A stretch of DNA of 64,000 nt from Octopus vulgaris (lineage: Eukaryota), in NCBI GenBank assembly GCA_951406725.2, contig OX597827.1, forward strand, positions 24,986,001-25,050,000, written 5' to 3'. The position numbers are program-made. Position 1 is the first letter of the stretch; every line of letters begins with the position of its first letter. Shown in pieces: positions 21,001 through 45,000 of this stretch.

Positions 21001-24000
21001 TTACGCACTGGGGTCGATATAATCGACTTAATCCCTTTGTCTGTCCTTGTTTGTCCCCTCTATGTTTAGCCCCTTGTGGGTAATAAAGAAATAGGTATTT
21101 CGTCTGCGTTACGTTGTGAGTTCAAATTCCGCCGAGGTCAACTTTGCCTTTCATCCTTTCGGGGTCGATAAATTAAGTACCAGTTACGCACTGGGGTCGA
21201 TGTAATCGACTTAATACCTATGTCTGTCCTTGTTTGTCCCCTCTGTGTTTAGCCCCTTGTGTGTAAAAAAGAAATAGGTATTTCGGCTGCCGTTACGTTG
21301 TGAGTTCAAATTCCGCCGAGGTCGACTTTGCCCTTCATCCTTTCGGGGTCGATAAATTAAGTACCAGTTAAGCACTGGGGTCGATATAATCGACTTAATA
21401 CCTATGTCTGTCCATATTTGTCCCCTCTATGTTTAGCCCCTTGTGGGTAATAAAGAAATATGTATTTCGTCTGCCGTTACGTTCTGAGTTCAAATTGCGC
21501 CGGGGTCTACTTTGCCTTTCATCCTTTCTAGGTCGATACATTAAGTACCAGTTACGCACTGTGGTCGATATAATCAACTTAATCCGTTTGTCTGTCCTTG
21601 TTTGTCCCCTCTATGTTTAGCCCCTTGTGGGTAATAAAGAAACAGATATTTCAAAATTGTCTCCCCTACCAAACGTGATCAAGTTGAAGGAGGGAGCCAC
21701 TGACTACTCCTCGTTGTCTTGTTTTATTTCTTTGCACAACATCTCATGAAATATCTTAGCACTGACTTAACTATTACAAATATCATCCGTTTCCCATATC
21801 TACAGTTGCAATATCGCATTCATCTACACGAGCCTACCGGCCTACTATTAATTTTTACCCGTTCAAATTTATCTTCATCACATCAAAGTTGTGAATCAGT
21901 AGTCATTGTAGCAAAGGATGAAATGCCTTCTGGTATTTGTTCTTGCTCTCTGCGTCCCGACTTCAAGTTCCTTTCAGGTTAATATTGCCTTTGATCAGTC
22001 TCCGCTATCGATAAACTAAAGTAGCAAACCCGAGCAGAATTGCTATAACTTCGGATGCTTTGTGTTATTTGTTATCACACTTTGGGTTCTGAGTCCTTGG
22101 GTGTTAGACAAATTATCATCCGGTTTAACTCCATCACACAGTCCATGGGTTTCATTTCGCAGAGTTCTTTCTAATTAAAGATTCAGGATTGATTTCCAGT
22201 TTGAAGATAACGTCCTCCCTTCGACCCATCAGACGCTAAGGAGACGCGATCTGTTTTTTTTCTCTCCCTGGTTCAATGGTAAAACCATTGAATATTTCCG
22301 AATATTTAGTCTTTGAAAGTTGTCAAAATAAATACACACGCACACACACACACACACACACACACACACACACACACACACACACACACACACACACACA
22401 CACACACACACACACACACACACACACGCACACATGCAGATTACTACACTTAAGGTAGTAAGCTGAAATTAATTAGCTGTTGTAACTTAGAGGAATTAGT
22501 AATTTGCGTTAATTAAAATTCTCATTAGGGTTATAATTTCGATGAGTTAAAAAGTAGTTTCCGCTCACTTAATCATGTATGATAACTAGTATACTTAACT
22601 GTATGTTACTCATGCAGAAGACCCACGTGGGGAACTTTTTTTGCAGTGTCATTTCAACAAATAATAAATTATTACACTGAACGTGGGTGCTTATATGTGG
22701 TCACTCGATCGACTAGAAATAGCAGACAACTCTTCCTCAAATTATACCTTATTGCTAGAAGAATCAATGATTGGTAAGTGTTTAATGTTTAAACTATGGT
22801 TTTCTTGAGACAGATATCACTCCTCAACAAGAATGTTCTTCTATTTAGATGTCCGTTTCTTAAACTCAACGAGATCTCATCTGAGAATATCAGGGCTCAA
22901 ACGACGCATTCAAGTTAGGACTATCCCAACAGTTTTTCTCAATTTAATATCAAAATATTCAATACAGTTTGAATTTTGTATATTTTTTTTTGGCATCAGG
23001 CAATGAGAATGTGATTAAAGGGAGATTTGGTCGGTCTTTTATTGTCGTTTTCGTTGCTTAATTCAACTAGGCCCTGAATTAACAAACCTATGATCAAATA
23101 AATTTCAACCATCCTATATTTTAAGACGCATGTCTAAAACTACAGTATTTAGGGTGTCCTTTCCTTCTCTGAGCCAGTAAGGTTATAACAACACAAAACC
23201 CTGACTTCAAAATAAGAAGTTCAAGGAAATTCCCCCTGAAATATGATATAGACTTTTATTATTCATCGCCAGTAATAATCTCCCTAATGGTGTGGTAAAA
23301 ATTGGTTGAATATCGTGTTTCATGGTTTATTACATGTTTAATGGTTTTATTTTTGTACACATATGTTGCCTTCCAAATGGTTTCTAATATTTTCATTGGC
23401 GCTACTGTCTACGATAAATGACTTTTGTTCATTATTAAAGATTATAACATATTTTAATTGCTTCTTTTTGTTTTGTTTCTGTTGACAGATTTATTCCACG
23501 GTAACAATTACGTTTATTATACTGTCCGTAATATCTTTCATCGTAGTTACTCATCCTTGCTGCCGAATACAAGGCGATCGGGATTTTTTTGGAATGGTAC
23601 ACTTAAACGAAACGAGGGAGCAGGAATTTACCTCTATGCCTCATCCTGCGTTTATTGTAATTGATTTAGTTTGTCTCGTATTCTTTACATGCGATTTGGC
23701 AATCAAATACTTCAGTTATCCAAACAGGAAGCTTTTCTTCATAAATGTATTGAATCTTGTGGATATTGCTTCGGTCTTACCTGATTTTATCGCTATTTTT
23801 ATTAGCACTACACTGGATGTAAAAAAGGCCAATGAAGTAATGCACTACGTCAATATTTTAGGGTTATTTCGTTCCCTCAGGATTTTCCGATTGGCACGTT
23901 ACGTCCCAGGATTGTGGATTTTGTTCTACACATTCAAAGCCAGTATCTGGGATTTGTTGTTGATGAACGGCTTTATGATGGTCGGTATGATTGTATTTGC

Positions 24001-42000: not shown

Positions 42001-45000
42001 GTTTTATGAATGTCGGTATGATTATGTTTGCCACTTTCATCTATTACGCCGAGGAGGAAAATTTCCCCAATATTTTCATTGGTATGTGGTGGGCACTGAT
42101 CACTATGACTACGGTTGGTTATGGAGATATGTCTCCATCAAGTAACTTAGGGTACCTTGTTGGCTCGTTATGTGCTGTCACTGGTTTGTTAATGGTCGGT
42201 TTCACTGTTCCTATAATCGTCAGTAATTTTGTCATGTACTACAAACATATGCAATCCATGCAAGAAGCAGGGAAACGTGAGGAAAAAGCTCAGAAAGATT
42301 TGGATCTGCTGCAAAAGTTGATAGAAAGTGAAGAAACAAGTGAACTAACAACCGAAGACATGGGACCTGAGACTTCGTCGGAAAAGCGTTCTAATGAATC
42401 AGAAGAAAAACGTAAACAACATCTGAATTCGTCAAAATTTCCTCCGCCATCTTACGACAGTTTGCCATCTCGCACTAATCACCGGCGCTTGCGTGTAGGA
42501 ATAGCTCGAAATTACATGCTTGCCAATAATAATAAGCAGACGACAAATGGATCACATGTATTAAAGAAACCTCCTAAAGAAACTGGGAATTCAGTACCAA
42601 GCAAAAATAATCGGGATAATTCAGACGTTCATCAGCATATGAATGATGAAAACTCAAATATCAACTGTGGACCAGAGATAAACGATCTTGAAACATCTAT
42701 GTTATAAAGACATTGGTATTGCCGGGCGACAATCGGGTGAAAGCCGCCGCCATTGTATATCATTAACTTCCACTATTCAAATGTTGCTGTGATTTTGCTT
42801 ATTTTAATATTTCTAATGTTGATACCCTTAATACCTGCAGTCAGTACGAGTCGTTGATTCTTATAAATTACATATCACCACGCCGTCTATAAAAGAAGGC
42901 ACCAGAAATTACTATGATAATGTTGCTGCTGCTGATGATAATACTAATATTAAAAGTAATAAATTAATAAGTAAAATAATAATGATTTTTTTATTTGCCA
43001 ACATGGCGACAGACGAAGAGACAACTGAGAGAGACAGAGCGAAATGTGGAGTTTTATATAGAAAAATCGAATGCGAACAAAGATGACGTAAGATAGTATA
43101 TAAATTGTATACTATTATTTTATAATGATGATGATGATGATGATGATGGTGCCGCCTTCCTGGTGCAAAAGATCGTGAATCTAGGACCGATCGAATGAAT
43201 AATTCCACAAGATCATTCTGGAGAACAAGGGCAAGCGTCCTCCATCCTTCAGATGTATATTCAGAGTAATCACATCTACTCCTACCATTTTCCTAACTCT
43301 CGCTTATCTTGAAGGCGGTGCCACCACTTTAACCCTACTCCCATTTTTCAAGTGAAAGTTGGAAATGTCTATGAGAACTCGGCCAATAGTCGTATGTACC
43401 CTACGTGCGACAGCTGCTGTTTGATATAACTCTGCCAAAAATCCTCTAAAGGTTGCTTGAGTGGAAATTTCGCGATACGAAAACGGTTTCCACGAGTGAT
43501 CATTTATGAGAATATGTTGCTGTACATTGCAGTGAGCAAGCCTATGAAATGAGTTCGTTTCCTGGTTAACTTTATCGAAAGCTTTCAAGCGATCCAACTT
43601 GGTACGGGTCCCACAGAACTCAACCTTGTCAGTGATGTTTTACTGGGGTAGGAATTGATGCATACAGTCTTAAGTTCTTTAAGTTTGCGTTTATCACTGT
43701 AATGGACCAAGTGTTGTCTACAACATATCTCTTGTTGGTATCCTTTTTTCAGCTGTATTACTACACTTCAGTTCACAGCACTTGGAATTCTCTTATTCCG
43801 CAGTCAGTTGCGGTAGACATCTTCCAATAGGCTACCCAGAAATCTAGCATGTATTTTTCAATATCAGGTTAGATCTTCGAAACCAGGATATTCGCTCCTC
43901 GTGCAACTCCTTCCTGTCTCCCGTATTTCAGTCGATATTATCATCTTCTGCCATTGATCGCAATAGGCCGACGAGGTAGGCAGTAAACTCCACTACCGTT
44001 TACAATTCATTGTCCACCTCTAAGTGTCGGACCAATTAGTGTTAGAAAGCCATACACATCTGTTCAGAACCGAGTATCTTGCGCCCGTCTATGTTCATCA
44101 AATACTAGATTGGGATTTGGTTGCTATGTCATTCTTCGCCCACTCCGGCCTATTGGAAAGCTTTTTGTTCCCCACAATTGTTTAGTGCACGAGCATTAGC
44201 TCTGGCAACATAACATTTGTGTTTTGTGCTAAAAGCTATTCTCGCCGCTAGTCTGTTGGTCGTGTAGCTTCTCAAACAACCTCTCTATTAATAACTCTTC
44301 AATAAACGCTACCGAGCCTCTCTATTCACCCTCCTCGGGATCATCATCGCTGGTTGTTGACAATTCCTTTCGACAACTGTTCCCTAGTTTGCTAATCCGA
44401 TCCTGTTGCCTTTCCAGTAACTGAATTTCTGTCAACGGGCCCTATCTATATCGATCGTGTAGACCTCAAATCTCTGCTATTCTTATCTGCTGGTCAGACA
44501 AAGACTCTTTTTTAGACACGGGTCCAAGACAATTTCCAGTCCATTGAGGTCTAAAGGTTTCACGAATAATACATCGACCCTTCTTCAGATCCTTAGAGAT
44601 CACGGAATGAGTATACCTTTTAGTCGATTACATTTGCTCCAGAGATTCTGGTCTCTCTAATAGCCATCACATCTATATCCAGTGACCTGAACTCGTCGAA
44701 CAAGTTGAACCCAGTCAGCACACATTTATCTGAGTGAAGAAATTTTGATTAAAGAAAAAAAAACTGAGAAGGTCACTCATTAAGTCCTCGAAAGACCTGT
44801 TGACCCGGTTACCTCGTTTGATAAGTAGGAGATATCAAAGGAGACTTTAAAAATCCTTTTGTTGTGCTTCTTTCTAAAAAGGCAAACATCAAAGAGATTA
44901 TTTTCCTTCGACTGTCTATATGTTTGGAAATTCATTTCCACCTATAATCTCTCTTTACAATCTCCTTCGTCAATTTAGTATTTGTTGTTTATTTTTCTTG

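Follow-up and report, generated by a model that had tools for sequence, protein, structure and literature searches.

We analyzed a 64,000-nucleotide stretch of Octopus vulgaris DNA (NCBI GenBank assembly GCA_951406725.2, contig OX597827.1, positions 24,986,001 to 25,050,000 of the forward strand), referred to below as the window and used as the frame for all coordinates. Within it are two paralogous exons, here termed cassettes A and B, each of which encodes the complete S1 to S6 membrane core of a voltage-gated potassium (Kv) channel. The window most likely represents, to judge by sequence, the 3' part of one Shaw-like (Kv3-type) channel gene of the Octopus vulgaris/sinensis group. We describe the two cassettes and their relatives, and then consider whether an upstream N-terminal T1 (BTB_2) domain may be joined to either of them by alternative splicing.

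Both cassettes were found on the plus strand, at a distance of 18 kb from one another. The corresponding open reading frames (ORFs) extend stop-to-stop from 23486 to 24436 (A) and from 41529 to 42707 (B). Since the upstream edges of the two exons have in common a 40-nt acceptor sequence that is 70% pyrimidine and ends in ...TGACAG, the exon starts were placed at 23489 (A) and 41532 (B), with an in-frame TGA immediately upstream of each acceptor. By this delineation, the terminal coding exon of cassette A (23489-24436) has 315 codons and a TGA stop at 24434-24436, and that of cassette B (41532-42707) has 391 codons and a TAA stop at 42705-42707. Phase 0 of both acceptors agrees with the ...GAK/I... 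junction in protein models P0001 and P0007, and P0001 has the end of ORF B as its C-terminus. Each exon thus has the anatomy of an alternative last exon, with an acceptor, its own stop and no need of a downstream exon.

The exon A product matched the Pfam Ion_trans family with an E-value of 2.9e-30 (profile positions 3-233 of 241) and the exon B product with an E-value of 4.8e-33 (positions 3-239 of 241). The two proteins are 55% identical; at the DNA level, 1027 bp align with 76.6% identity. The structure of A was modeled with AlphaFold from an alignment of 50 sequences; the model had a mean pLDDT (predicted local distance difference test) of 81.7 and displayed S1 to S6 with a pore helix; the acceptor is positioned one residue ahead of the S1 helix. 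In this model the helices correspond to 23492-23551 (S1), 23645-23716 (S2), 23747-23812 (S3) and 23819-23902 (S4), and the pore part to 23945-24019 (S5), 24041-24082 (pore helix) and from 24113 onward (S6), all on the plus strand. The model of A matched the solved cores of Kv1.2, Kv3.1, Kv2.1 and Kv4 with E-values of about 1e-13, and a sequence search of solved structures concurred. When the full B-type protein P0001 was compared to solved structures, Kv3.1 was best (8.5e-78) with Kv2.1 near (4.5e-73); for the A core alone, Kv1.2 chimeras scored best. The source databases name these proteins 'Shaw-like'. A core profile run over the 64-kb window detected A and B as the sole cassettes. These results bear out the preliminary description of this DNA, in which two paralogous exons had been reported to begin at a phase-0 acceptor at S1, to encode all of S1 to S6 and to end in their own stop.

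No T1 domain was detected in the window. When eight full-length relatives were used as tblastn queries (E-values up to 10), their membrane parts alone aligned to A and B, and the N-terminal matches all had E-values of at least 0.36, with 0.61 given for the best. A profile of 47 T1 domains from stored proteins was run unfiltered over the 3260 six-frame ORFs of at least 12 residues in the window and likewise identified none, the best score being an E-value of 0.45 on the minus strand. T1 mini-exons within the window were also considered and rejected, the weak tblastn and profile matches being on the minus strand or in repeats. The earlier statement that no T1/BTB-like ORF precedes A or separates A from B was thus upheld, and neither T1 exon nor mini-exon was detected between 25100 and 41300 by tblastn or the T1 profile. 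The window also contains no N letters, and so no marked assembly gap between A and B. For the window, the absence of T1 excludes ordinary tandem genes in which a T1 exon would separate the two cassettes.

The first in-frame ATG of A is codon 36, downstream of S1, so the exon cannot by itself encode S1. With TGA blocking the frame upstream and ATG only at codon 36, a complete A core requires splicing to an upstream phase-0 coding exon, as would fit the ...GAK/I... junction of the protein models.

Relatives of the two cassettes carry the missing domain. O. sinensis Shaw-like isoform X3 (XP_036364621, 584 residues) has its T1 domain within residues 1-193, and its remaining 391 residues (194-584) match cassette B at 99% identity; isoforms X1 and X3 of this species differ solely at the extreme N-terminus. 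B is joined to a T1 N-terminus in the RefSeq models of two octopus species. The best relative of A was O. bimaculoides A0A0L8HTU3 (P0007, 506 residues), at 79% identity overall and 87% in the core. The T1-type Pfam family matched by the relatives is PF02214 (BTB_2), and this domain is in the same polypeptide as the core in the B-containing models P0001 and P0002 and in P0007, the O. bimaculoides orthologue of A. When the O. bimaculoides A-type model (P0007) was compared to the B-type model of the same species (XP_014769438, P0002), residues 1-201 were found to be identical and the cores 63% identical, the two diverging exactly at the position that matches the exon starts in the window. Among 46 stored proteins with both T1 and core, P0002 and P0007 were the only pair with the same T1 and different cores; other molluscs were searched for such pairs in this set, and the oyster and scallop isoform pairs were found to have an identical core.

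Additional T1-less cassettes were identified outside the window, as the preliminary description had anticipated: P0003 (O. sinensis, 268 residues), which is located on the same chromosome-sized contig as the B gene, P0005 (O. bimaculoides, 293 residues) and P0004 (O. bimaculoides, 347 residues). In public annotations these additional cassettes, termed C (XP_036364622) and D, stand alone as T1-less 'Shaw-like' genes. The P0003 model starts from an internal methionine within S1, and that of P0005 extends in from the intron. The T1-less public models of C and D probably represent terminal exons of the same gene that annotation has wrongly split off. By maximum-likelihood analysis, the cassettes formed one clade (support 100/100) that was split into an A clade and a (B,(D,C)) clade. 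The A clade (100/99) comprised A of the window, A of O. bimaculoides and a third A-type sequence, P0011. The sister group of the cassettes consisted of two Logan sequences, of which the full-length one (P0008) is a single T1 plus core. By this tree, the cassette duplications predate the split of O. bimaculoides from the lineage of the window.

The products of A and B differ in the S1-S2 loop, the S3-S4 loop, the charge of S4, the residues after GYGD and the tail. Arginines occupy every third position of S4, with five in B, C and D compared to four in the A clade, in which the outermost arginine position is glycine in the window and alanine in O. bimaculoides and P0011. By contrast, the filter sequence TVGYGD was invariant in the 50-sequence alignment and is present in both A and B. 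The P-x-P gate motif of S6 is found in neither cassette, as both read TVP. This is a trait of the molluscan subfamily as a whole, to judge by the 131 stored proteins: TVP was read in 71 and SVP in 19, with the pattern blank in 39. Different voltage sensors, pores and tails had been proposed for the two exons. The S4 charge, outer pore and tail do differ, but the TVGYGD filter and the TVP gate are the same.

In the tail of A, a 27-nt tandem repeat of 5.9 copies (24275-24435, plus strand) encodes an acidic C-terminal end that runs to the stop. A relic of the ancestral distal C-terminal tail was found after this stop in another frame (24510-24668, plus strand) and preceded by a stop of its own; it matched the tail of O. 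bimaculoides cassette D at 46% identity over 59 residues (E-value 3e-6). The A protein of O. bimaculoides likewise ends in an acidic repeat, and the truncation of the A tail is therefore old. Cassette B retains a long tail that ends in ...ETSML, and related full-length proteins end in similar S/T-x-hydrophobic motifs. The end of B resembles a class I PDZ ligand.

Taken together, these findings argue with reasonable probability for one Shaw-like gene in which an upstream T1 would be spliced to alternative whole-core terminal exons, namely A, B and further cassettes. In this model, the exon or exons of the N-terminus and T1 would be found beyond the 5' edge of the window, over 23 kb upstream, with a phase-0 end (...GAK). 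From there, the T1 donor would be spliced to one of several terminal exons, each supplying a full S1 to S6 with a tail and a stop, and presumably with a cleavage site of its own. Two of these exons, A and B, are in the window, and the chromosome would carry one or more others outside it (C, and D in O. bimaculoides). Which exon is used would depend on competition between two outcomes: splicing and 3'-end formation at A, or read-through to later cassettes. Because T1 would be shared, the products of A and B should be able to co-assemble. We infer that A is used in the O. vulgaris genome of the window, that the cassettes share one donor, that they have poly(A) sites of their own and that the products co-assemble. 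The splicing of one T1 to either A or B had been put forward in the preliminary description, and the evidence supports it in part: no T1 is found before A or between the cassettes, A has no ATG ahead of S1, B is joined to T1 in protein models, and the O. bimaculoides models have a T1 common to both types. The poly(A) signals cited in its favor do not exceed chance, as detailed below.

Several observations weigh against this model, most of them concerning cassette A. Searches with A (lengths of 173-553 residues) returned no O. sinensis protein, the best match being the 79% identical protein of O. bimaculoides; neither O. sinensis nor the genome of the window was represented by an A-type protein in the collection, A is absent from the annotation of the window itself, and exact look-up of nine possible A products gave no match. 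RefSeq models of both species use B only, with cassette C annotated as a separate T1-less gene. The joins of T1 to A and to B are those of predicted protein models; that of T1 to A in O. bimaculoides comes from the single protein model A0A0L8HTU3, and the O. sinensis isoform comparison covered X1 and X3. In addition, A has lost its distal tail, which a minisatellite replaces, and is evolving somewhat faster than B (cores 87% identical between species for A compared to 91% for B), and the AATAAA motifs after A and B are not beyond chance. Most of these points would also be expected if only B works and A is an unused or hardly used duplicate, a silent or decaying pseudo-exon, with the A isoform of O. 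bimaculoides a product of annotation. We consider this explanation unlikely. The A ORF is intact over 315 codons in the window and is also intact in O. bimaculoides, and P0011 provides a third A-type sequence. Among the A orthologues, S4, pore and S6 are nearly invariant (30/30, 28/30 and 28/30 identical in 30-column windows from S4 to S6) while the loops vary, and A-specific traits, of which the loss of the outermost S4 arginine is the clearest, are common to all three sequences. The ratio of nonsynonymous to synonymous divergence (dN/dS) of A compared to B is about 0.45 (246 codons). Furthermore, the acceptor of A and 170 nt of the intron before it remain 96.5% identical to those of B.

Two other arrangements were weighed against a shared T1. 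If A, B, C and D were separate small genes with their own promoters that encode T1-less subunits, as RefSeq annotates C, then the T1-less database models (P0003, P0005 and P0004) and a 237-residue fragment of B included in the annotation of the window itself would be accounted for. Both ORFs of the window, however, begin right at a strong acceptor and are closed off by a stop immediately before it, A lacks an ATG ahead of S1, P0003 and P0005 start within S1 or read in from the intron, and reference models join B to T1, all of which make independent genes very improbable. Alternatively, each cassette may have its own T1 exon further upstream, beyond the DNA examined, in interleaved or nested genes that share no donor. 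This is highly unlikely, given that the A and B models of O. bimaculoides have the same T1 part over 201 residues when their cores are only 63% identical, and that the T1 part, used as a query, retrieved a single T1 of this type from each species (three proteins, all at 91% identity or above; the next was at 51%). Of the explanations weighed, a single gene with one T1 and alternative terminal cores fits best.

The stretches of intron directly before the two cassettes are more similar than the exons they precede. The 170 nt of intron before the acceptor of A (23319-23488, plus strand) are 96.5% identical to the 172 nt before that of B (41360-41531, plus strand), pyrimidine tract and acceptor AG included in both; another 110 nt, farther from the exon, have about 85% identity (23212-23318 before A, plus strand, compared to 41261-41359 before B, with indels). 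No copies of the element other than those of A and B were found in the window, nor any complementary copy. By contrast to the element, 42% of synonymous sites differ across the A/B core (dS 0.61). Silent divergence was low in the first 40 codons, with a proportion of differing synonymous sites (pS) of 0.145 compared to about 0.48 elsewhere (Fisher p 7e-4, from rounded counts). The amino-acid differences of these 40 codons recur in O. bimaculoides A and B, however, and the exon start was therefore not homogenized after the species split. An RNA structure that links the intron element to the exon start, as a duplex for editing or for a selector, was tried as an explanation and rejected, as the sequences folded no better than shuffles (z 0.30 and 0.79).

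Cassettes B and C show concerted evolution. For about 90 residues, from S3 to S5, the two do not differ at all, with flanks that differ by 30-40%. In the S3-S4 linker they share residues specific to the species, both cassettes of the O. sinensis-type genome having one version and both of O. bimaculoides another. As read from these sequences, the pattern bears the mark of gene conversion among members of the cluster. Since gene conversion would act within the cluster, the intron identity of A and B may be a conversion tract, in this case a very recent one that ends within 5 nt of the acceptor; it may instead be a constrained splicing-control element. We tentatively entertain, as a rather doubtful extension of the single-gene model, that the cluster has at least three or four whole-core terminal exons under one T1 and that the 170-nt element provides a selector-like control by which each neuron would choose among cores; a single locus would thereby supply, in many combinations, co-assembling subunits that differ in voltage sensor, pore and tail.

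The signals for 3'-end formation were then considered. The first AATAAA 3' of the A stop is at 25099-25104 (plus strand), and an ATTAAA (42949) and an AATAAA (42958) are found 3' of the B stop (42949-42963, plus strand). All are candidate poly(A) signals and none is beyond chance: AATAAA occurs 180 times on both strands of the window, compared to 118 expected by shuffling, or about once per 700 nt per strand. Because the hexamer is this frequent, its presence after A and B is uninformative; it is compatible with terminal exons and is no proof of them. The AATAAA motifs had been described as located at 25099 and 42958 in homologous positions. The motifs are at these sites, but the homology of their positions was the result of forced global alignment of weakly similar 3' sequence.

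The cassettes were also matched by the Rfam model of a potassium-channel RNA editing signal (RF00485, K_chan_RES), at 24083-24196 in A (plus strand, 70.9 bits with a cut-off of 51) and at 42114-42227 in B (plus strand, 49.1 bits, just below the cut-off). The minimum free energy (MFE) structures of these regions differ from the structure of the family and are not more stable than shuffles (z 0.32 for A and -0.50 for B), and the alignments of A and B to the model contain 5 to 8 non-standard pairs. The editing hairpin was thus not supported by folding, and the match probably arises from the conserved pore-S6 coding sequence. An isoleucine codon homologous to the edited site of K_chan_RES is present.

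Repeats occur elsewhere in the window. One repeat family, with units of approximately 185 bp that are 82-95% identical and occur in either orientation, some of them in tandem, accounts for a large share of the intron sequence upstream of A and of that between the two cassettes, with members at 11443-11835, 12528-12939, 16194-16428, 18090-18500, 20852-21652, 35656-35885, 38412-38671 and 40165-40428; four tandem units are found at 20.9-21.65 kb. Long pure microsatellites, including (TC)51, (AAT)41, (ATA)31 and (TAT)74, are located between the cassettes at 26586-28170 and 33475-33697 and give rise to spurious weak matches to protein profiles. An apparent decayed third cassette at 26890-27138 (minus strand, E-value 0.0025, the only further hit below 0.1) was rejected on this basis, being a match of the low-complexity tail of the profile to the microsatellite stretch 26586-27025. 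Weak tblastn matches at 11684-11929 and 13432-13512 (E-values of 0.15 or higher) were similarly discarded, as they are in or near the repeat family and contain stops. An inverted repeat pair of 547 bp (96% identical) connects 32939-33477 to 57336-57882, and a direct pair of 750 bp (77%) is found at 5591-6342 and 7447-8179.

When 19 further ORFs of at least 130 residues in the window were scanned against Pfam, one reverse transcriptase and one low-complexity ORF were the only results. The former is an uninterrupted ORF of 1235 codons at 53969-57673 (plus strand) that matched RVT_1 (E-value 1.7e-29) and, weakly, zf-RVT; from these matches, it is probably a non-LTR (long terminal repeat) retrotransposon and may still be intact. 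One arm of the 547-bp inverted pair is just 3' of this ORF. The other, an ORF of 131 residues at 62022-62414 (minus strand), had weak matches to unrelated membrane-protein families, mostly below cut-offs, and looks like a low-complexity hydrophobic translation of repeat DNA.

Gene duplication, heteromer formation and terminal splice variants, together with RNA editing in cephalopods, are the usual explanations of Kv diversity. If the single-gene model is correct, a constant assembly domain with a swapped sensor, pore and tail would be a further route to such diversity, in which the subunits would always be able to co-assemble and would differ in gating charge and localization signals. The locus would also be a clear case of cassette-type alternative exons in a cephalopod neural gene. 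In literature searches directed at such a layout, with most subscription journals outside their scope, no report was found of a Kv gene whose whole core is encoded by alternative exons. Public databases already contain the O. bimaculoides protein models that imply it, and current annotations split the cluster into one full gene and T1-less fragments. The identity of the intron element and the concerted evolution of B and C are additions to the preliminary description; the loss of the outermost S4 arginine and of the distal tail in the A clade is also new here.

Parallels to the proposed design are found in several systems. Exon 6 of Dscam1 is chosen by a docking-site and selector system, and the octopus locus is similar in having a conserved intron sequence directly upstream of each alternative exon; no stable fold was found for the octopus element, however, which may be a mere conversion tract. 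In Drosophila Shaker, the core is constant and the N- and C-terminal ends are swapped, whereas the octopus gene would keep its assembly domain and swap voltage sensor, pore and tail. Alternative exons of Shaker give channels with different gating, according to PMC3519636, and to this extent both are protostome Kv genes with alternative exons. Vertebrate Kv3 (KCNC) genes are closer in exon plan. As described in PMC2933717, their N-terminus, S1 to S6 and C-terminus are encoded separately, in that order, with alternative splicing confined to the distal C-terminus; this agrees with the earlier remark that Kv3 genes have an intron near the T1/S1 boundary, and the acceptors of the octopus cassettes are placed at the same boundary, ahead of a whole S1-S6 exon. 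Since this plan separates the N-terminus from S1 to S6, duplication of the S1-S6 exon would yield the octopus layout, which suggests that this exon, together with its tail, was duplicated in tandem to form the cluster. The octopus gene differs from Kv3 in having several copies of the S1-S6 exon fused to the tail and an S6 gate of TVP rather than PVP.

The closest design is that of the lola-type BTB genes, which include mod(mdg4) and fruitless, and the T1 domain itself has a BTB fold. For Drosophila lola, PMC6329818 describes a shared N-terminal BTB domain with isoform-specific C-termini from alternative 3' exons, so that a common N-terminal oligomerization domain and alternative 3' ends would be features of both. 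The lola-type genes encode transcription factors with zinc-finger ends, whereas the variable part of the octopus gene is a membrane channel core. The preliminary description had likened the locus to an inverted clustered-protocadherin design, and this comparison holds as an analogy of layout only. Like the clustered protocadherins and UGT1A, the octopus cluster has tandem paralogous large exons, each a full module, that would be joined to a constant part. Gene conversion between members of the cephalopod protocadherin (PCDH) arrays is reported in PMC9068888, in likeness to the conversion suggested within the octopus Kv cluster. The same paper states that splicing of this kind is not the source of PCDH diversity in cephalopods, and if the 170-nt element were a selector, the Kv cluster would thus provide splicing-based diversity of a kind that cephalopods are said not to use for protocadherins. 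The defining features of the protocadherin and UGT1A variable exons, first exons with their own promoter and start codon, are absent from the octopus cassettes, which open at acceptors and end in stops. The variable exons of those clusters come first and are chosen by promoter, whereas those of the octopus gene come last and would be chosen by splicing and 3'-end formation.

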